A model generated the notes under the pieces. It saw only the letters and a list, made by a program, of their open reading frames with translations. It was not told the DNA's origin and made no database searches. A DNA stretch of 9,182 nt from a virus (Duplodnaviria; Heunggongvirae; Uroviricota; Caudoviricetes), in IMG/VR virus record IMGVR_UViG_2651869781_000012, one strand, 5' to 3'. Below, piece after piece: positions 1 to 9,182 of this stretch. The translations under genes were made by a program, and so were the position numbers. The stretch's first letter is position 1. Every line of letters starts with the position of its first letter.

Positions 1-251
1 GGTCATGGCCTCCATAGTGATGGCGGGTCCTCCTTGTGGGGTGCCCTGCCACGGGGCGGGAGCATCGCGGAAAAAGGCTAGTTTTTGCATTTTTATTCGT
101 CATCACCACCAATGCAATATATTGATATGACTTGATGTTTTATTTTTCGGTGTCGATTTCGATTGTTTTTTGTTCATCACTGACGCATAACGCCCACCAG
201 CGCAACGCTGAAAGCCAGTCAGTAAACTGGCTTCGGTCATTGTGCACTACG

Positions 252-794
252 TTACTTGTCTTTATCCGGCTGAAACTTATCAGGCACATTTCCGGTAGTT
301 TCCATCAGATAATCGGACAGCATTCGCGGGATGTTTTCATCAAGTTTTGTGCATGCGTTACAGGCTCTGACAACTTCTTTTTTCAGGCCATCCAGCATGA
401 CGGGGGTCATCTGTGGGAAGCTCCTTTGCATAGTAAGCGGGAGGCTGTCCATGATTGATGAAATCTGACTCGCCAGTTTTGAAAGCGCGTACATGCAAAA
501 CTCTGTATCAATCACGTCACCGCGATCGCGCTCGTTTTTAAGTTCCTGCGCCTCCGCCTGTGCTGTCAGTAATCTGATCCTGACTCGTAAGAGTTCATCA
601 TCATCAATCTCGCCTTTGTCGTTTGTAAGCTGGCTAATTGCATTGTTAACCCTATTGTCTATCACGCTGGCAACATCATAAAACGCCTCACGGCCTTTAC
701 GTTCAACGGGAGTCACTCCCCACTTGTCGAATGCTGTAGCACTTACCCGGCAGCTTTGCGCCATGGTTTTTTTGTTCATCAGGTGCGATTTCAT
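252..794 (-). CDS. Terminase small subunit, lambda Nu1-like
   Basis: 180-aa ORF. The C-terminal two thirds resemble lambda Nu1 as recalled from memory (ours ...LTAQAEAQELKNERD...FCMYALSKLASQISSIMDSLPLTMQRSFPQ...IPRMLSDYLMETTG versus lambda ...LTRAQADAQELKNARD...FCTFVLSRIAGEIASILDGLPLSVQRRFPE...IPGLLSEYIEQSG). The N-terminal HTH region is alignable but divergent. ATG at 794 is preceded by a weak GGGA; in-frame alternatives are TTG at 797 and ATG at 779 or 764. The gene starts about 135 bp downstream of cosN, as in lambda. Confidence 0.85.
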   Translation of the reverse strand: MKSHLMNKKTMAQSCRVSATAFDKWGVTPVERKGREAFYDVASVIDNRVNNAISQLTNDKGEIDDDELLRVRIRLLTAQAEAQELKNERDRGDVIDTEFCMYALSKLASQISSIMDSLPLTMQRSFPQMTPVMLDGLKKEVVRACNACTKLDENIPRMLSDYLMETTGNVPDKFQPDKDK

Positions 795-822
795 CAATAT
801 CCCAACTTGGTCAAGGTTTCAG

Positions 823-838
823 GTTGGTGTGTTGGTGT
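823..838. repeat. Tandem direct repeat GTTGGTGT x2 in the cosB-equivalent interval
   Basis: Plus strand 823-830 and 831-838 are both GTTGGTGT. A nearby (ACC)n tract lies at about 881-896. Both sit between cosN and the Nu1-like start. Confidence 0.5.
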
Positions 839-927
839 TATCTTTCCCTTTTTATTCATGGAGATAGAGCAAACAACAAAACCACCACCACCACCCTGAA
901 AAAGCTCATAAATAGCGAAAAACCGCG

Positions 928-939
928 AGGTCGCCGCCC
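928..939 (-). other. cosN-like cohesive-end site (lambda-type cos)
   Basis: The minus strand reads GGGCGGCGACCT, identical to the lambda 12-nt cohesive end as I recall it. Flanks on both sides also resemble lambda: cosQ side GGGTCCTTTCCGGCGATCCGGTAGGCTACG versus lambda GGGTCCTTTCCGGTGATCCGACAGGTTACG, and cosB side CGCGGTTTTTCGCTATTTATGA versus lambda CGCGGGTTTTCGCTATTTATGA. Confidence 0.8.
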
Positions 940-995
940 CGTAGCCTACCGGATCGCCGGAAAGGACCCGCCAGCCAGAACGGGCCCTAATTTCA

Positions 996-1379
996 TCAAC
1001 CAATCAACTTATAGCGACCATCCCGTGCATTGCGACGTACACGCTCAATCTTGAGGCATAGCGCCGCATCTGGCTTTTTTGGGACAGGTACGCGGCAATA
1101 TTCAGAAGCTCGAGGAATATTGTTTATCCAGTCGATCACTTCACTTAAATACCAGGCCTTACGCCCTTCCGTAACCTGTACGCGCTCGGGGAACTCTCCG
1201 CGAGCCTCAAGGTTTAGCAATGTGCGACGGCTAAGGGTAGTAAGTTCCATCACCTGATTCATATCAACAAGGCGTTCACTTAAACGCATTTTGTCAGCAA
1301 TAGCCTTTAATTCCTCTACTGCTGGATCCGGATACATCATTTCGGCAATTGGCTTAAGGTCATTGTAATGATTCTGCAT
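996..1379 (-). CDS. AlpA-family HTH DNA-binding protein (127 aa), function unknown
   Basis: Residues about 40-87 (LTTLSRRTLLNLEARGEFPERVQVTEGRKAWYLSEVIDWI) fit the AlpA/excisionase-type HTH pattern. SD AGGGGGA lies 4 nt upstream of ATG 1379. It starts 11 bp after the D-like stop and ends about 55 bp from cosN. Confidence 0.7.
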   Translation of the reverse strand: MQNHYNDLKPIAEMMYPDPAVEELKAIADKMRLSERLVDMNQVMELTTLSRRTLLNLEARGEFPERVQVTEGRKAWYLSEVIDWINNIPRASEYCRVPVPKKPDAALCLKIERVRRNARDGRYKLIG

Positions 1380-1390
1380 TGTATCCCCCT

Positions 1391-1732
1391 TTACACACGA
1401 GCCAGCGGCTGAACAGAAATACCTGAGCCAACAAACGCGGCAACCTTTGCCGACAGTTCTTTTACAGACTCAGGCCAGTTCAGAGCATCAACATTTAAAA
1501 CACCTGTCTTATAAACCTGTGCCTGTGTTTTTTTCGCTGTGTCGATTTGTACAGCGGAAACATAAACCGCTTTGCCTGCGCTCGTTCCATCCCATACCAC
1601 TAGCGCACCAGTTGCATCTTCCTGCATCAGTGGCGTAAACGCAGGTATTACCCCTTTATTGGCTGAAAATATCCCCAGCGTAGTAACCAGTGCTTCAGTG
1701 CCAGACATGAGTTCAGTGTAATGAGTAGCCAT
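1391..1732 (-). CDS. Head decoration protein, lambda gpD-like
   Basis: 113 aa. TPLMQEDATGALVVWDGTSAGKAVYVSAV and ...NWPESV...AAFVGSGISVQ parallel lambda gpD [29 protein letters not shown] and ...LWPEAA...TAFAGTAISIV (from memory). SD GGGGGAG precedes the ATG; the start is 9 bp after the capsid gene stop. Confidence 0.85.
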   Translation of the reverse strand: MATHYTELMSGTEALVTTLGIFSANKGVIPAFTPLMQEDATGALVVWDGTSAGKAVYVSAVQIDTAKKTQAQVYKTGVLNVDALNWPESVKELSAKVAAFVGSGISVQPLARV

Positions 1733-1741
1733 TGCTCCCCC

Positions 1742-2788
1742 TTAGCCAATGCGAACGGTAACAAAACGATTGATGCGGGCCGGTATTGGCTGTGGTGCTG
1801 AATGTGTCTGCACATATTCAATAGCCGGATCACCAGGCACAATATAGTTTTTCGGTACAAGTTCGGCTTTAGTCAGCCCCATCCGGATTAGCTCCGGATC
1901 CTGAATACCGCCATAAGCGACAATCCCCTGAAGAGCCGTATTGCCAAGCACCATCAAATCAGGATCAAGGAAATATTTTTCAGTTCCGTCCTCGTCGGTA
2001 TAACGCCCGCTGTAAACAACAATCGCAACATCGCCCATATACCCTTTAAAACTCACCGAATCACCAAGGTCTTTAAGGGCCGTTTCCAGTTCGGAATTAG
2101 AACCACGACGAGTATCCAGAGCCTCTTTTATCGCCCTGAATGAACGGTATTTCTTCCATACATTACCGCCCATAATGATAATATTAGTGACGCCCTCACT
2201 AAATTCTGCGTAGCTCTCAATATCATCATTTGGATCAAAAGCTTCTTTATCCTTACCTGACCACTCAGCACCGCCAGACTGAGTGATGATATTTTGTGGT
2301 TTAATATTCCAGTCCAGCTCATAACGTTCAATACCATCGCCCTCAATGATATTTTTCCCCGTTGTGATTGCCTGAACGGCAAGCCATTCAATACGTGCAC
2401 GAATAGCTTTAGCCTGATTTACAATCGCCTGTTTAACTTTAATATTACGCGCTCCAAAAGCATTGTATTGCTCAGGTGATACACCAGCAGGGCGCACAGC
2501 TAACTTATTTGGATCAATGCTGCTTTTCGGTTTCATATAGCCAGGGCGAATTGTTTTTGATTCGTATCCCTCATCTCGTGAAACTTTACTGCCCACCATA
2601 GGAGAGCAAAACGCCGCGATCGGGATATTTGGATCGTCGATCGTATCAAGAATAATGTCTCTCGATTCAAACATTACCGAGCGAGTGAAAAACAAACTGG
2701 TAAACAACGCATTTAATTTTTTTTGCACATCTTCAGCATTAGCCACCTGCACAAGCTGTGTAGGCGAATATAAGTCAACCATACTCAT
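1742..2788 (-). CDS. Major capsid protein, lambda gpE-like
   Basis: Long identical runs with lambda gpE as recalled (ITQSGG.EWS..DK...DP.DDIE.YA...GV.NII, FRSF.A.KE.LDTRRGSNSELETA.KDLG..VS.KG..GDVAIVVYSG.Y, MVLGNT). Both proteins begin MSM. Start at 2788 (MSM) or 2782; AAGAGG sits 6 nt upstream of 2782. The six-frame ORF's 5' extension to 2869 is unlikely to be coding. Confidence 0.9.
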   Translation of the reverse strand: MSMVDLYSPTQLVQVANAEDVQKKLNALFTSLFFTRSVMFESRDIILDTIDDPNIPIAAFCSPMVGSKVSRDEGYESKTIRPGYMKPKSSIDPNKLAVRPAGVSPEQYNAFGARNIKVKQAIVNQAKAIRARIEWLAVQAITTGKNIIEGDGIERYELDWNIKPQNIITQSGGAEWSGKDKEAFDPNDDIESYAEFSEGVTNIIIMGGNVWKKYRSFRAIKEALDTRRGSNSELETALKDLGDSVSFKGYMGDVAIVVYSGRYTDEDGTEKYFLDPDLMVLGNTALQGIVAYGGIQDPELIRMGLTKAELVPKNYIVPGDPAIEYVQTHSAPQPIPARINRFVTVRIG

Positions 2789-2999: not shown

Positions 3000-3422
3000 T
3001 TAAAACGGTATATTATCGCCGTACGGATCATCATTCCCCGACTGTTGTTTTGCCCTGTTCAGTGCGTCAGTGGCCTGCCCCTGCTGGCCTTTTTTGCCGC
3101 CCGGTCGCGCTGTTCGCGCACTGATCACGCTGTCTGCGATAACCTGCCAGCCCTGCCGCGTTTCGCCGTTCTGGCCTGTCCACTGGCTTACCTGCATGTT
3201 ACCCGCCACGCTCACCAGTTCGCCTTTGTGGTGTTTTGCCAGTGCGTCGGCCTGTCTGCCAAACGCCAGGACGGATAACCACATCATCGCCGTTCCGTCA
3301 TCTGCCTGGCTGCACGGAAGGGGGACCGCCATACTAGCCATCGCCATTTGTGTACCCTTGCTGGTGGTCTTTAACTGCGGGTCAGCCACCAGCCGTCCGT
3401 AAGCCGCTATCTGTGCTGTCAT
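3000..3422 (-). CDS. Single-stranded DNA-binding protein (SSB)-like, OB-fold with C-terminal IPF tail
   Basis: 140 aa. The N-terminus (AAYGRLVADPQL...) and core (WLSVLAFGRQADALAKHHKGELVSVAGNMQVSQWTGQNGETRQGWQVIADSV) follow the SSB OB-fold pattern. A Gly/Gln-rich linker precedes a C-terminal ...DDPYGDNIPF, reminiscent of the E. coli SSB DDDIPF tail. The ATG overlaps the upstream stop (ATGA). Confidence 0.75.
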   Translation of the reverse strand: MTAQIAAYGRLVADPQLKTTSKGTQMAMASMAVPLPCSQADDGTAMMWLSVLAFGRQADALAKHHKGELVSVAGNMQVSQWTGQNGETRQGWQVIADSVISARTARPGGKKGQQGQATDALNRAKQQSGNDDPYGDNIPF

Positions 3423-3951: not shown

Positions 3952-5769
3952 TTAATTTTTGCTATCGTCATTAGTGACCGATACACATGATGGCATCCAG
4001 TCTTCTGATTCCTCCGTCAGTGTCACGTTTGAACGCAAACCGTGCTTCGTTTTCCGTTTCATATACTCCCTGCCATATTCCGCCATTGCCCCCGGCATAT
4101 CTTTACCGAAGCGCGTCAGTGTTACAGGTTTACCAAACCCATGTGCCTTCATATAAGCCAGATAGGCATGATAGAGATACCTGCGCGGGCTGAATGGCAC
4201 AATTTCAGCATTACCCACTAACAGGCCATCACACATTACCGACGCCATGAGATAGCCGCAGAAGTCCACCAGCGAATCACCTTCACGCTTTATCGCGAGT
4301 GCTTCTTCTGATTTCTGCTGCTCATATAAAAGGCGTCTGGCTTCGTCCTGGTCAGCAAACCGTGTAAGCAGATGACGAATCACTACCGCCAGCTCACCTT
4401 CTATTTTTTCCGCCAGCATTGAATCGCGTTCGTTCTCCGGTACAACTTCCGAAAAATTGAATATCACCCGACGGCGCGAGATCCCCCCACTGCGGTCACT
4501 GAATGACATAGCGTTATTGTTAACCGCCAGCACTACTGCCGGGATACGCGTTGAATATGGGGCTTTATGTTTCGGGTCGATTGCCACCTTGTCACCGCCT
4601 GTAATAGCCTTAATTCCCGCCCCATCACCAGCGTAGCGGGTCATATCCGGCATGATAATCAGCGAAAAGCCAACCACTAACGCGCGTTCCCTTGCATCTT
4701 CCAGCGCCTTCATGCTCGCTGATACTGTATTAGCCTTACCCGCCAGCATGGTGCAAATCTCCGCCATCACGCTTTTACCACTTCCCCCTGGACCTGTTAC
4801 CTCAATGAATAACTGCCAGTCGTACCGGTTCGCCAGCACCATGAATAATGCAGCCAGTACGCGATCCGCCTTGCGGTCATTCTCAGCCACCGAACGGCGT
4901 AACCACTTCCAGAAATTCGGCGCATGTGTTGCCAGCGTTTCCCCCTCTGCTGGTGGGCTGAAAGGTAATTCACTGGCAATTAACAACCAGTCGTTTTTGT
5001 TATGCTCCCGAAAATTACCTGTTCTGGTATCAAATACCCCGTTACTGAATCCAATCAGGTTACGGGCTGTATTCCCCATTACAGGCAAACTTAACTTCAT
5101 GGTATCGACCGCCGATTTAATGGCGTTCTGCGAATAGCTGATCTCCGCATCAATGAAAATCTGCGCCATAGCACGCTGTAACTCTTTATCCTGAACCGGC
5201 TCCCATACAACGCCGTTGTAATGGTGAACAGTGTCAGAGTCGGCATGAATCGCCAGTTCACCGCCATAATGTGCCAGGAGAACTTCGCCGCGTTGACTTG
5301 CTCCCATCTGGTTAAGCGCCAGTGATGAAGCGTTATCGTCTTTTACCCGCTCTTTTTTCTTTACAGGCAGTTCAACTACCTTTTTCTTTTCCGCCAGCTC
5401 TCCCCGCTCACGTTCCAGATATTCGCGCCAGTTCTCCCGTTTCTGGCTGTGCATTCCTTCAGGGTAATAATCAGCATCCCTGACACCTGCCGCTGCCAGT
5501 TTCTGCCCGATGGTATTAACAAGCCCCGGACGCAATAACCCCGCCTGGTAGAGACGCACGCGATAGCGTCCGTCCGGTACGATTTGCAGGTTGTCCAGTT
5601 CGGCAAGTTGTTGCTCTCCAAGCCAGACAGGTGGCACGTTATCGCCAGCCAGTCGCCCGTCCTGTTCCTGCCACTGCTTCGCATGTGCCCACGCATCACT
5701 ACCCGCAAAAATGATGACTTCCGTCATTTTGTCACGCGGCTGGTGTTTTAAATTTGGCGCTTTTTTCAT
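3952..5769 (-). CDS. Phage/plasmid primase-helicase, P4 alpha-like (SF3 helicase domain)
   Basis: About 605 aa. Walker A GPGGSGKS lies in the context FIEVTGPGGSGKSVMAEI, typical of P4-family primase C-terminal/D5-type helicase domains. ATG 5769 has GGAGAGAG upstream and overlaps the upstream gene stop (ATGA). The six-frame track start at 5784 is a GTG. Confidence 0.9.
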   Translation of the reverse strand: MKKAPNLKHQPRDKMTEVIIFAGSDAWAHAKQWQEQDGRLAGDNVPPVWLGEQQLAELDNLQIVPDGRYRVRLYQAGLLRPGLVNTIGQKLAAAGVRDADYYPEGMHSQKRENWREYLERERGELAEKKKVVELPVKKKERVKDDNASSLALNQMGASQRGEVLLAHYGGELAIHADSDTVHHYNGVVWEPVQDKELQRAMAQIFIDAEISYSQNAIKSAVDTMKLSLPVMGNTARNLIGFSNGVFDTRTGNFREHNKNDWLLIASELPFSPPAEGETLATHAPNFWKWLRRSVAENDRKADRVLAALFMVLANRYDWQLFIEVTGPGGSGKSVMAEICTMLAGKANTVSASMKALEDARERALVVGFSLIIMPDMTRYAGDGAGIKAITGGDKVAIDPKHKAPYSTRIPAVVLAVNNNAMSFSDRSGGISRRRVIFNFSEVVPENERDSMLAEKIEGELAVVIRHLLTRFADQDEARRLLYEQQKSEEALAIKREGDSLVDFCGYLMASVMCDGLLVGNAEIVPFSPRRYLYHAYLAYMKAHGFGKPVTLTRFGKDMPGAMAEYGREYMKRKTKHGLRSNVTLTEESEDWMPSCVSVTNDDSKN

Positions 5770-6065
5770 TTCTGCTCTCTCCACGCGGCAATCATGTTTT
5801 TCAGTTCCTGTAGTTTTTTATCCACATCCACACGTGACACATGGTTATTTCTGGAAGTCGGGATTTCCCGCCGGAATCTGCAAATAAAGATCTCCACGTT
5901 CAGCGAACTAAGAAATGAATATCCATCACGGATAAAATAAACACGGTCAAACATCAGTTCTTTTACCGTTACTCTGTTACCGTTCTTATCCAGATAAATA
6001 GCGCCGGGGATAATTTTGTGGTGTGCATAACCGCTGGCAGTCAAGCCAGATAAATATGTTCTCAT
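5766..6065 (-). CDS. Hypothetical protein (99 aa), operon member upstream of the primase
   Basis: ATG 6065 with GGGGA upstream; its stop overlaps the primase start. No recognisable motif. Confidence 0.6.
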   Translation of the reverse strand: MRTYLSGLTASGYAHHKIIPGAIYLDKNGNRVTVKELMFDRVYFIRDGYSFLSSLNVEIFICRFRREIPTSRNNHVSRVDVDKKLQELKNMIAAWREQK

Positions 6066-6071
6066 GATTAT

Positions 6072-6392
6072 TTATCCCCGATTTGAATCAGTATTCGCTT
6101 TCTTTATGGCATTTAATGCATCTGTGGCATTTTCAATGGTGCACCGTAACGAAATATCAAACTGCCCAAGCATTGCCAGTAACAAACCGATATTACCCAT
6201 ATCAATGCGCATGGCCTTTTCGTCATAGTCCTCATTTTCTGACGCATGCCACATCAGGCTACCAATTGACGCAATACCCATTGATATATTGTCAGTAGCC
6301 CCATCCGCAGCGGAATAAACCTTTTTAGCAATATCATGCTCACAGTTAAAATGCGGATTAATCAGGTACTGGTAACTGGTCATGTCAGGCAT
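6072..6392 (-). CDS. Hypothetical protein (106 aa)
   Basis: ATG 6392 is preceded by AGGGGG at 6 nt spacing and overlaps the upstream ORF stop by 8 nt. No recognisable motif. Confidence 0.6.
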   Translation of the reverse strand: MPDMTSYQYLINPHFNCEHDIAKKVYSAADGATDNISMGIASIGSLMWHASENEDYDEKAMRIDMGNIGLLLAMLGQFDISLRCTIENATDALNAIKKANTDSNRG

Positions 6393-6588
6393 GGAACACC
6401 CCCTGACGAATACGGGCAGTAAATACCATCACGCAGCCATCAGGAGATTGCTGGCGAGCTTCCTGTTCGCTGGTGGCCTCAATGTGAATCACGCGCGGTT
6501 GTGCGGTGCTCAGGGCGATAAAACGCCAGATGTATTTATTCAGGTTGTGCGAGTCCCGCCCTTGCGGGTGTGTGGTATGATTTAACAT
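6385..6588 (-). CDS. Hypothetical protein (67 aa), first gene of the primase operon
   Basis: ATG 6588 is preceded by GAGGT at 4 nt spacing. This is the C-terminal 67 codons of the 306-aa six-frame ORF, whose upstream part overlaps the plus-strand genes and promoter region and is probably not coding. Confidence 0.5.
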   Translation of the reverse strand: MLNHTTHPQGRDSHNLNKYIWRFIALSTAQPRVIHIEATSEQEARQQSPDGCVMVFTARIRQGVFHA

Positions 6589-6673
6589 AGCTACCTCGAT
6601 ACGCTTTCTATCGTTGGTGGTTAGAAGCCCTGCGAGTGGTAACGACACTTGCGGGGCTTTGCATTTATGCACC

Positions 6674-6757
6674 TTGACAACCTCAAGGTGTGGCCCACTA
6701 CATTCTTTAGGTGTGGCCCACGTCAAGAGTTTTATTTGTGCTTTTTCTGTGTATACT
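6674..6757 (+). promoter_or_regulatory. Divergent promoter/operator region with two copies of GGTGTGGCCCAC
   Basis: TTGACA at 6674-6679. Direct repeats GGTGTGGCCCAC at 6687-6698 and 6710-6721, each containing the near-palindrome GTGGCCCAC. TATACT at 6752-6757 lies about 30 bp upstream of the RHH gene ATG. The region sits between divergently oriented genes at 6588 (-) and 6788 (+). Confidence 0.4.
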
Positions 6758-6787
6758 GTCCCCCACCAATCCAACAGAGGAATAGAA

Positions 6788-6967
6788 ATGGCAACGGGTA
6801 CAACAAACGCAAAATCACAAGCTCTAAAGGCTCGTGTACCACACGAAATAGTAAACGCCATGGAATCAGTGAAAGAATCAGGCGAAAGCACATCACAATT
6901 CATCATTGCGTCAATGCAAGGCGAGATCAAACGCCGCCAGCGACGCAAAGCCAAGGAGTCAGAATAA
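6788..6967 (+). CDS. Ribbon-helix-helix (CopG/Arc-like) DNA-binding protein, 59 aa
   Basis: AGAGG at 6776-6780 precedes ATG 6788. The sequence KSQALKARVPHEIVNAMESVKESGESTSQFIIASMQGEIKRRQRR fits a beta-strand plus two helices RHH layout. Transcribed divergently from the primase operon. Confidence 0.6.
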   Translation: MATGTTNAKSQALKARVPHEIVNAMESVKESGESTSQFIIASMQGEIKRRQRRKAKESE

Positions 6968-7024
6968 TCACTATCAGCGCCGTGGTGTGAGTAACTACGG
7001 CGCATTGCTATGCAGGTGCTTACC

Positions 7025-7204
7025 ATGAACGATAAAGAGTTAAAAAAAACACCACCACAAACACTGAAAGGACAGCGCAAAAAGATAGCGCATGAGCATG
7101 AATCAGAAAGATTCGCCCCCTGTTCTTTTGCTCTTGAGAAATTCCTTAAGGAGCACAAGAAAAAGCTATCATTGCAAACCTGGGAACGAACCGAATCTGA
7201 CTGA
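7025..7204 (+). CDS. Hypothetical small lysine-rich protein (59 aa); coding status uncertain
   Basis: ATG 7025 is preceded by AGGTG (7014-7018). It lies between the RHH gene and the plus-strand terminator. Highly charged, no recognisable motif. An alternative ATG is at 7010. Confidence 0.3.
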   Translation: MNDKELKKTPPQTLKGQRKKIAHEHESERFAPCSFALEKFLKEHKKKLSLQTWERTESD

Positions 7205-7268
7205 TCAAATTGCCCACCAGCCAGCAAATCGCTATGATGTTCGGGCTTATGTTTAGTGTTTTCCCATT

Positions 7269-7297
7269 GGCGACCGCCCCCGGTCGCCTTTGTTTTA
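7269..7297 (+). terminator. Rho-independent terminator
   Basis: Stem GGCGACCG(7269-7276), loop CCCC, stem CGGTCGCC(7281-7288), then TTTGTTTT(7289-7296). It lies between convergent plus-strand genes and the alpA stop at 7316. Confidence 0.6.
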
Positions 7298-7315
7298 TAT
7301 GTCATATGCTCCCCT

Positions 7316-7525
7316 TTACGCTGCCTTACCTGAATTAATGCGATCCCGGCTTTTAACCCATTCCATAACCTCGGACAGCAGCCAACCTACAGAACGCCCC
7401 CCCAGATTAAGACGTGACGGAAAGCATCCTTTTTTCTCCAGTTCATAGCGTGTAGTGCGACACACTCCAGTTAACTTACGACATTCATCCTCACGGATTA
7501 CGCGATCTTCATTTATTTCACGCAT
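7316..7525 (-). CDS. alpA: AlpA-family transcriptional regulator
   Basis: 69 aa. LTGVCRTTRYELEKKGCFPSRLNLGGRSVGWLLSEVMEWV matches the AlpA HTH pattern. Same orientation as the integrase, with an AT-rich upstream region. Confidence 0.85.
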   Translation of the reverse strand: MREINEDRVIREDECRKLTGVCRTTRYELEKKGCFPSRLNLGGRSVGWLLSEVMEWVKSRDRINSGKAA

Positions 7526-7943: not shown

Positions 7944-9182
7944 TCAAGAATTTTGGGTGTAAATTCGCGGGGCCATAACAACGATTTTTTCATCATTGTT
8001 CTGGAGAAGCTCGAGACGGTCTACCCATAGATTAAGAGCATCACGTTTTGCATCAAGATAACGGGAGTGATTATAGACTCGTTGCATCCCCGGCATCTGG
8101 TGGGCGGTAAGCTGCTCGACAATATGCGGATCCACGCCTAAATCGTTCAGCATGGTTGTAAATGTGTGCCGGATGTCATGCAACGACCAAGGGGCTTGAT
8201 TAATGCGTCTGTGTGCCGTTCTTCCGTACTCTGATACGGATGATTGCCCTTTCAGTTCTCCAAGCAATAAGCCCGTGTGCCTGTTCTTCTCCACCAGCTT
8301 CGTGACGAACGGCAAAATGCTTTCCGGTATTGGCCTGAATATGGCGACCTTCGTTTTGCTGTGCTCCTTCGGTACTGTCCAGAGCATTTCTTTAAAATCC
8401 CACTCCTGCACCTCAGAGCGCCTTAGCTCGGTGGTACGGCATCCAAAAACAATCAGGAGGCGAATTAGGGCGCTGTAGTACGGCGGGAATATTTTGTCAT
8501 CCAGAGCGCGGAGTAATTCCCCAAGCTCCTTGTTTGTTAGTACGCGCTCGCTCACTTCTGCTTTTTTTCCCACATCACCGACAACCATATCATCAAGAAC
8601 GTTGCTGATTGCGTATCGTCGTTTTCGGCAGTACTTAAGCGCCTGTTTGCATACCTGTAGCAAAAATCCGGCAGATACCGGGCTTCGCTTTGCCATCTGG
8701 TCAAAACATGTCAACCAGTGCCGTAGCTCGCATTTTTCCAACGGCATAGCGCCAATCTGGCTGATTATGTGTTTATTGATCCGGCTTTTCAGTGATTCGT
8801 AGTCAGTGCGCTTTTCCTTTGCATACGATTCAAGCCAGTAAGTAAGCGCTTCCTTAACTGTCACGGGGGCTAACGCATCCTGTACAGCACGATTAAGCTC
8901 ATAGCGCGGATTTTTCCCCTCAGCCAGCCAGGCGCGACACTGTGCTGCTTTTTCCCTGGCTGCTTTCAGGCTCAGATCGGGATAATTGCCCAGTCTCAGA
9001 CGTTCCGGTGATACCTGCCTACCAGTTCCGGCCCTGTAAGTGAAATACCAGGTTAACAGGCCGCTGGTGGAATGTCTTACGCTAAGATTGCCACCGTCAT
9101 TAAAAAAGGCGTTTTTTGTGGTTGGTGATCCGCTTAATTTTCGTAAAAGAGTGTCGCTAAGTCTATGAATTGCGCTGCTCAT
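7944..9182 (-). CDS. int: Tyrosine recombinase / integrase, P4-type
   Basis: 412 aa. The N-terminal arm-binding-like region (DGGNLSVRHSTSGLLTWYFTYR...LGNYPDLSLKAAREKA) and C-terminal catalytic motifs (HDIRHTFTT; ...QRVYNHSRY) fit the family. The ATG is the last three bases of the window, so an upstream start cannot be excluded. Confidence 0.9.
   Translation of the reverse strand: MSSAIHRLSDTLLRKLSGSPTTKNAFFNDGGNLSVRHSTSGLLTWYFTYRAGTGRQVSPERLRLGNYPDLSLKAAREKAAQCRAWLAEGKNPRYELNRAVQDALAPVTVKEALTYWLESYAKEKRTDYESLKSRINKHIISQIGAMPLEKCELRHWLTCFDQMAKRSPVSAGFLLQVCKQALKYCRKRRYAISNVLDDMVVGDVGKKAEVSERVLTNKELGELLRALDDKIFPPYYSALIRLLIVFGCRTTELRRSEVQEWDFKEMLWTVPKEHSKTKVAIFRPIPESILPFVTKLVEKNRHTGLLLGELKGQSSVSEYGRTAHRRINQAPWSLHDIRHTFTTMLNDLGVDPHIVEQLTAHQMPGMQRVYNHSRYLDAKRDALNLWVDRLELLQNNDEKIVVMAPRIYTQNS

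Follow-up and report, generated by a model that had tools for sequence, protein, structure and literature searches.

A PICI-type satellite of Escherichia coli encodes an N15-type small terminase beside its own lambda-type cos site and no large terminase

Here, we propose that the small terminase subunit (TerS) encoded at the left end of a 9,182-nucleotide stretch of viral DNA (IMG/VR record IMGVR_UViG_2651869781_000012; the whole stretch is called the window below) gives a phage satellite its own packaging specificity. Comparison with the genomes of W619 and XD35 identifies the window as an Escherichia coli phage satellite of the phage-inducible chromosomal island (PICI) type, inserted at clpS / yljB-cspD. 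We think it likely, at a probability of roughly 0.7, that the protein binds the island's own cosB and joins a gpA-family large terminase (TerL) supplied by a helper phage, which would then cut the cosN at 928-939. This is based on TerS belonging to the Nu1 family and evolving under purifying selection, on a complete cos adjoining its gene, and on the type of its DNA-binding domain covarying with the type of cosB among related satellites. As the island has its own lambda-type cos but no large terminase, that of a helper is most likely borrowed. An initial annotation of the window, made from the sequence alone, had already suggested a satellite TerS that recruits a helper TerL. That idea is supported by the island having its own TerS, no TerL, a lambda-like cosN and cosQ and a different cosB, but the lambda-centred argument about protein domains on which it was built has to be amended.

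The identification of the gene as a Nu1-like small terminase is borne out by an intact 180-aa open reading frame (ORF) that matches both PHROG 57 (terminase small subunit; aa 1-174, E=6e-52) and the Pfam family Phage_Nu1 (PF07471; E=1e-22, 81 bits against a cut-off of 30), and RefSeq names the same ORF “terminase small subunit” in relatives. Since the Phage_Nu1 match spans aa 64-148 only, the N-terminal 63 aa fall outside this lambda-centred model. The protein starts with an N15-type winged helix-turn-helix (HTH; aa 1 to ~55), which leads through a long helix or linker to the conserved hinge LTAQAEAQELKN (~aa 75-87); the C-terminal half (~88-180) is of a satellite type and carries a 13-aa tail extension.

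The initial annotation described the N-terminal HTH as diverged. This is so relative to lambda (35% identity to the DNA-binding domain of Nu1, lambda 1-68), but no new type is involved: the domain is that of N15 gp1, to which aa 1-47 are 61% identical. N15 gp1 is also the best phage match overall (47.5%). The two proteins share the pattern AFDKWGV.PVE..GRE.F.DV.SV.DNR and the same deletions relative to lambda, and their recognition regions read S.QAFDKWGV (N15) and SATAFDKWGV (island). A profile of the N15-type subfamily matches the solved lambda TerS 1-101 (6HN7_B; E=2e-6, aa 6-84), a profile being needed to reach it, as a phmmer search of the PDB with the single TerS sequence returned nothing relevant. 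From an AlphaFold2 (AF2) model, of which the secondary structure only was used, come helices at 8-14 and 21-25, a beta-hairpin at 31-40 (the wing), a helix at 41-56 and then long helices. By sequence, the N-terminal domain is an N15-type winged HTH, and it belongs to a known specificity class: N15 has been described as the third packaging specificity of lambda-like phages, with the Monarch prophage group suggested as sharing it (Feiss et al. 2015, PMC4669245).

The C-terminus, in turn, had been taken to be well conserved. This applies to the self-assembly segment (51% identity to lambda 100-140) but not to the gpA-binding tail (34% to lambda 141-181), so that by sequence identity the tail that contacts gpA has diverged from lambda as far as the DNA-binding domain has (34% vs 35%). 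N15 gp1 differs from the island protein here, being lambda-like in both segments (76% and 80%, respectively). In lambda-like small terminases the last ~40 residues bind the large subunit at its N-terminus; the motif LDE.IP..LS.Y is kept in the island protein's C-terminal region, and its TerL binding is a prediction at the level of sequence. A homology search with the C-terminal half alone recovered mostly partial E. coli TerS fragments and no phage protein with that half. TerS is under purifying selection, its mosaic C-terminal part included: dN/dS is 0.21 overall (against the O157:H7 allele), and it is 0.20 for aa 129-180, which exist as diverged alleles within the N15-type group (59% identity, with a dS of 1.24 vs 0.08-0.22 elsewhere).

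The cos region proposed earlier at 795-927 is real, and it extends further, to a cosN and a cosQ-like box (Table 1). On the minus strand the order is cosQ-like box, cosN, cosB and then the ATG of terS at 794. The cohesive-end sequence GGGCGGCGACCT occurs a single time in the window and is followed by CGCGG.TTTTCGCTATTTATGA, the same as in lambda. Every satellite compared keeps the cosQ-like box, as do the three helper prophages that were examined (the CFT073 prophage, the L059 helper and PhiR5_1), and a conservation of cosQ and cosN has likewise been described for PICIs (Murialdo and Feiss). A “terminator” called at 926-941 was rejected, being the partly symmetric cosN itself.

The cosB-like region matches the cosB of lambda, N15 and the satellite EcCICFT073 in position, and its sequence is unlike the R3/I1/R2/R1 of lambda. 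Counted from the cohesive end, positions 46-70 are GTGGTGGTGGTGGTTTTGTTGTTTG. All 8 satellites with an N15-type DNA-binding domain have GGTGGTGGTGGT(G/T)TTGTTGTT at the R3 position, with diverged flanks, and have in common a second block, CAATACACC(C/A)AC(C/T)TG. The cosB of N15 carries GAGGTTGTTGTTTAA at positions 48-62, with the same GTTGTTGTTT-type core in its R3 region, which lies roughly at the lambda R3 position (Feiss et al. 2015, PMC4669245); the island's core lies ~8 bp further from cosN than that of N15 and is preceded by (GGT)n. The island's cosB also contains a 13-nt inverted repeat (92% complementary, 59 nt between arms), the distal arm of which could, by analogy with lambda R2, be an inverted second TerS site. 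A scan for the integration host factor consensus found no site in cosB, and its matches in the window were not above chance; a sigma-70 promoter scan found none in 1-1500.

There is no gpA-like ORF in the 251 bp left of the terS stop, as the initial annotation noted. Since the window offers only this much sequence beyond the stop, the same annotation allowed that the large terminase might lie past the left edge, as it would for an ordinary phage terS. We consider this explanation wholly improbable. In W619 and XD35 the island ends at attL, with clpS adjoining, ~1.23 kb past the terS stop; therefore, there is no large terminase in the island. By comparison, the TerL gene of phages overlaps the 3' end of terS and a gpA-type TerL requires ~1.9 kb; the genomes with the identical gene have a 94-aa ORF, then attL and clpS, all within the 1.23 kb. 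The largest ORF in this interval (128 aa) encodes a conserved PHROG 1561 protein to which no function has been assigned. A gpA homolog was looked for further left of terS in the complete genomes and none was found, and TerL is equally absent from the rest of the island in W619, XD35 and IHE3034. In addition, tblastn with three types of TerL (lambda A, N15 gp2 and the 21 type) gave no match in 30 related satellite loci. A TerL beyond the window's edge is thereby excluded for the closest complete genomes, XD35 and W619, and a prophage operon was rejected, the overlapping downstream gpA-type gene being absent.

The PHROG 1561 protein is itself a regular neighbour, a conserved form of 93-94 aa being found after terS or rppA in all islands examined. 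The annotated start of its ORF is 12 nt left of the window (window 1-251 and L001:7704-7988 were compared), and an MTMTMT repeat region at the window's left edge falls within the upstream in-frame extension of this ORF.

How, then, might such a TerS serve the satellite? A lambdoid helper would induce the island, leading to its excision, its replication and the formation of concatemers. The N15-type winged HTH of TerS would then bind the island's own cosB, probably at the R3-equivalent GGT/GTT repeat and possibly at its inverted distal partner as well, while the C-terminal half would assemble with the helper's gpA-family large terminase. The latter would nick the lambda-identical cosN and use the cosQ-like box for termination, so that satellite DNA would be packaged into capsids. 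We infer the binding of cosB, the binding of helper TerL and the class of helper that would serve from sequence comparison. We further predict that the window's TerS replaces the helper's TerS, and does not partner with it as RppA does.

Comparative support for this proposal is that the type of the DNA-binding domain covaries with the type of cosB, at the sequence level, across three classes of satellites (N15, lambda and 21). Satellites with a DNA-binding domain identical to that of lambda carry the lambda R3/I1/R2/R1, and those with a 21-type domain carry 21-type R sites. These siblings pair a lambda- or 21-type DNA-binding domain, and the cosB that matches it, with the same C-terminal half. 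One such case is P0099, a TerS of 194 aa from phoQ-site islands, where the N-terminal ~100 aa are near-identical to a 21-type prophage TerS and the C-terminal ~95 aa differ from those of the window by one residue. At the DNA level, 393 bp of its gene are 98.7% identical to window 564-172, and its 5' 526 bp show an 84.6% match to the cos-terS of the CFT073 prophage (a 21-type prophage cos-terS-terL for comparison came from a CFT073 region outside EcCICFT073). The mosaic junction falls within the conserved hinge-coding segment (AQADAQELKN). Phage PhiR5_1 (L125 1850-2743) nearly equals the phoQ-site satellites (P0099 type; L005:5700-6300) in its cos and in the N-terminal half of its TerS, and among phages it comes closest to the satellite type in the C-terminal half (62% and 45% in two segments). 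On these similarities PhiR5_1 is a candidate donor or helper class.

Relatives embedded in helper prophages extend this pattern. These satellites (bioRxiv 10.1101/2022.07.18.500453; L014-L033) sit in gene E of lambda- or N15-like prophages, and their identity to the window reaches 98% for the capsid gene, 96% for the decoration gene and 96% for the AlpA-family gene. The window's island, by comparison, is chromosomal (clpS-cspD) with an integrase 41-42% identical to theirs, and their prototype, 11capE, was described as being without terS. In L025-L031, which reach those three maximal identities, TerS is only 37-39% identical to that of the window: its first ~100 residues are almost identical to lambda Nu1, its C-terminal half is satellite-type, and the adjoining cosB is the R3/I1/R2/R1 of lambda. 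The gpE-like and gpD-like genes of L025-L031 are thus 96-98% identical to the window's despite a wholly different cos/terS cassette. The cosN of this group is altered to GGGCGTCAGGCG, a cohesive end that differs from lambda at 5/12 positions (L025, L026, L031); GGGCGTCGACCT, GGGCGGCAGACG and GGGCGGCAGCGT are cosN variants of other satellites. A megablast of one helper-embedded terS against E. coli genomes found nothing, as these satellites come from other Enterobacteriaceae.

One contig (IMGVR_UViG_3300011966_000057) holds both partners of a helper-satellite pair, with satellite L023 inserted in gene E of a prophage. The satellite's TerS is 58% identical to that of the window and has an N15-type domain, and the helper prophage (L059) encodes a Nu1 and a gpA that are 87% and 88% identical to those of lambda. 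Satellite and helper have an identical cosN (GGGCGGCGACCT), similar cosQ boxes and an unrelated cosB, and their TerS proteins are 39% identical in the DNA-binding domain and 37% in the C-terminal tail. To judge from these sequences, the parts read by TerL are shared and those read by TerS are private, which is the pattern expected if a satellite TerS steers the helper's TerL to satellite DNA.

Among the described elements closest to the window is the IHE3034 PICI, listed as “encodes TerS” (Fillol-Salom et al. 2018, ISME J, PMC6092414). It occupies the same cspD-clpS site and has a near-identical integrase, an alpA protein of the same accession and the same gene order. Its TerS (180 aa) is 87% identical to that of the window overall and ~97% over aa 1-128, with the same cosN and cosB motif. 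It differs in the C-terminal 50 aa, which are a different allele (59% identity), and in having a 137-aa protein upstream of cos in place of the 127-aa AlpA-family protein. The publication noted the TerS and measured a very low transfer, with no analysis of cos, of the DNA-binding-domain type or of mechanism (PMC6092414).

EcCICFT073, the model Gram-negative PICI, is collinear with the window, with int, alpA, an icd-like gene, DUF4222, primase, SSB, capsid, decoration, a small protein, cos and then rppA, which holds the exact slot of the window's terS (L013:19500-20093 vs window 252-969). Both islands have a lambda-type cosQ and cosN, a private cosB and then a specificity gene; rppA is a proven packaging-redirection gene (Fillol-Salom et al. 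2019; Murialdo & Feiss 2022). RppA also has a TerS-type winged HTH at its N-terminus (profile match to PHROG 57, E=4e-8), in agreement with the literature. However, RppA has 144 aa, lacks the TerL-binding C-terminus and must heterodimerise with the helper's TerS, whose own gene EcCICFT073 transfer strictly requires, whereas the window's TerS is a full-length 180-aa Nu1 homologue. BLASTP detects no similarity between the two (E=1.4); this, the length (180 aa vs 139-154 aa) and the full Nu1-type C-terminal half led us to reject the window's gene as an Rpp homologue. At the R3 position EcCICFT073 has ACCACCACC, whereas the terS islands have GGTGGTGGT, the reverse-complement repeat. An O157:H7 island at the EcCICFT073 site (roxA-phoQ; L042:10979-11727) carries the window-type terS and cos instead of rppA. 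EcCICFT073-type islands have a 137-aa protein upstream of cos (L013:19083-19496, L124:13523-13936, L042:11727-12140), where the window has the AlpA-family HTH protein; this 137-aa protein weakly matches profiles of the head maturation protease in their C-terminal part (PHROG 53, E=1e-8) and may be a Nu3-like scaffold fragment.

Lambda gpNu1 resembles the window's TerS in family, length, cos-terS layout and identical cosN, but it is 37-40% identical overall, has a DNA-binding domain of another subtype with ~14 extra residues in the alpha3 region, and goes with a different cosB and an adjacent gpA. N15 shares the domain subtype; its gp1 is followed by its own TerL (gp2) and its cohesive end differs from lambda at 2/12 positions, whereas the island has no TerL and a cohesive end identical to that of lambda. 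As regards the analogy drawn in the initial annotation to SaPIs (pathogenicity islands found in Staphylococcus aureus), the logic carries over, as the SaPI also gives the specificity subunit only and uses the helper's TerL. The mode does not, since SaPI packaging is headful (pac) with a TerS of an unrelated family, whereas the island is of the lambda cos type, with defined cohesive ends.

A more serious alternative is that TerS is mainly an interference factor like Rpp, forming mixed oligomers with the helper's TerS through the central segment or titrating the helper's TerL, with the promotion of satellite packaging being secondary or absent. We consider this unlikely as the main explanation, although the likeliest of the alternatives. 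The gene occupies the slot that rppA holds in EcCICFT073, conservation with phage TerS is highest in the central segment (50-62%), and a close relative, the IHE3034 island, transfers poorly. Moreover, the private C-terminal half is kept even where the N-terminal half and cosB are near-identical to those of a phage, a pattern in keeping with selection for contacts between proteins instead of DNA specificity. An inhibitor alone, however, would need neither a cos nor a cosB that covaries with the DNA-binding domain, and every satellite examined has a complete cos and its own conserved cosB beside terS, which counts against a pure inhibitor. The full-length Nu1 architecture, which includes the tail region that binds TerL in lambda and that Rpp (144 aa) lacks, argues in the same direction. 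As interference and packaging are not mutually exclusive, an interference role is a plausible additional or alternative function of TerS.

Could the cassette instead be a dead remnant of a lambdoid prophage, with terS, cos, gpE and gpD as functionless leftovers? The head and packaging module is represented by fragments only, and the homologues include deletion and fusion derivatives: in P0094, which has lost the AlpA-family gene, cos and the 5' end of terS, a gpD-like N-terminal part is fused to the TerS C-terminal half, and in P0085 TerS is fused to the downstream PHROG 1561 protein. Nevertheless, the dN/dS of 0.21 holds across alleles, mosaic C-terminal part included; the cassette is present in 941 of the 5426 complete E. 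coli genomes (~17%), O157:H7 included; and the order int-alpA-pri-SSB-capsid-decoration-cos-terS is found at three integration sites in several genera. The collinear EcCICFT073 is, furthermore, an experimentally mobilised satellite (PMC6092414). Selection, prevalence and an architecture conserved at three integration sites make a dead remnant very unlikely.

Several observations weigh against a TerS that redirects helper TerL through its own cosB. No helper was identified for the window's island, and the induction of resident prophages with mitomycin C in the strain carrying the IHE3034 island yielded a transfer of <1-40 transductants/ml (PMC6092414). The TerL-contact tail is only 34% identical to that of lambda or N15, and among 50,697 phage genomes the C-terminal half is matched at 53% at best (PhiR5_1), with lambda-type proteins reaching 41%; compatibility with any particular gpA is therefore putative. 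In some sibling satellites both the DNA-binding domain and cosB are identical to those of a phage, so that there, discrimination through cosB is not the whole story. Lastly, the AF2 model is of low confidence (pLDDT 66.5, pTM 0.29), and Foldseek found no significant match for it in the PDB, its matches to MerR-type winged HTH proteins being not significant.

The island as a whole (10.47 kb, with ends placed by comparison with the empty clpS-yljB-cspD site of K-12) is flanked on both sides by the imperfect direct repeat GATA(G/A)ATAACTATCAT. W619 aligns to the whole window at 97.3% and encodes a 100% identical TerS, and XD35 aligns to window 252-1000 (terS and cos) at 100% DNA identity. All credible window genes are on the minus strand (Table 1), and the PICI core set (int, alpA, primase-replicase, capsid gene and terS) is present, co-oriented, in ~10 kb. 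Annotation by Pfam and PHROG, along with that of relatives, found no tail, lysis, portal or large-terminase genes in the island. A P4-like element was considered and rejected, as was a capsid-forming PICI (cf-PICI), the latter on account of there being only gpE-like and gpD-like genes and no TerL, portal, protease or head-tail connectors of its own.

Table 1. Features of the window, listed from the integrase end of the island towards terS.
Feature	Position	Strand	Remarks
Tyrosine integrase gene	7944-9182	-	Far end of island; PICI backbone
alpA	7316-7525	-	PICI backbone
Icd-like gene	6385-6588	-	
DUF4222 gene	5766-6065	-	
D5_N/DUF5906 primase gene	3952-5784	-	PICI backbone
SSB gene	3000-3422	-	
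gpE-like major capsid gene	1742-2782	-	Satellite morphogenesis module
gpD-like head decoration gene	1391-1732	-	Satellite morphogenesis module
127-aa AlpA-family HTH gene	996-1379	-	Directly upstream of cos; same module
cosQ-like box GGGTCCTTTCCGG	957-969	-	18-30 nt upstream of cosN
cosN cohesive-end sequence GGGCGGCGACCT	928-939	-	Same as the lambda 12-nt end
cosB-like region (133 bp)	795-927	-	From cosN to the terS start codon; not lambda-like
R3-equivalent GGT/GTT-repeat motif	870-894	-	Contains the GTTGTTGTTT-type core; conserved in satellites with an N15-type domain
Inverted repeat, proximal arm TTTCAGGGTGGTG	889-901	-	Overlaps the start of the R3-equivalent motif
Inverted repeat, distal arm CACCAACCTGAAA	817-829	-	Overlaps the second conserved cosB block
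terS (180-aa Nu1-family small terminase)	252-794	-	Pfam, PHROG

The satellite's gpE-like capsid protein is ~41-42% identical to lambda E and is accompanied by the gpD-like decoration protein (pair at 1391-2782), but the satellite encodes no portal, protease or scaffold. A mechanically called 306-aa ORF at 6385-7305 (-) is probably spurious: the Icd-like annotation covers its 3' end alone (6385-6588), and within 6614-6967 the other strand carries a YlcI/YnfO-family gene. Outside the window, XD35 carries beyond clpA (L041:220-5405) a second small element with an integrase, an HTH protein and a DUF3987 protein.

PICIs that encode a TerS are a common element type, and one already known: the IHE3034 PICI (same site, TerS 87%) was published in 2018, and SatelliteFinder counts terS among the PICI core components. 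Taken singly, a terS without terL in a PICI is what specialists expect. In the literature searched, we found no assignment of this TerS with its matching cosB to the N15-type specificity, no alternation of TerS or Rpp at one locus, and no modular swap of cosB and DNA-binding domain against a satellite-private C-terminal half. Our case for these three points is made by sequence comparison only. TerS-encoding Gram-negative PICIs have been catalogued, and we found no mechanistic dissection of them in the searchable literature; the only worked-out E. coli mechanism is that of Rpp, which depends on the helper's TerS (Fillol-Salom et al. 2019; Murialdo & Feiss 2022).

More tentatively, and somewhat short of even odds, the packaging specificity of enterobacterial PICI-type satellites may reside in an exchangeable cassette that runs from cosQ/cosN to the hinge-coding segment. 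Recombination with phages may exchange cosB and, along with it, the DNA-binding domain of TerS that fits it (lambda-, 21/PhiR5_1- or N15-type), while the private C-terminal half is kept, engages the helper's TerL and stays separate from the helper's TerS; Rpp would be another protein to fill this slot. What is specific to satellites in TerS may then be the C-terminal half and not the DNA-binding domain, the reverse of what the initial annotation assumed. The terS and cos of the window, for their part, predict a second route to satellite packaging, one that replaces the helper's TerS. The satellites described here also form a natural domain-swap series, in which one C-terminal half is combined with N15-, 21- and lambda-type domains and the matching cosB, and which is usable to map both cosB recognition and the choice of TerL.

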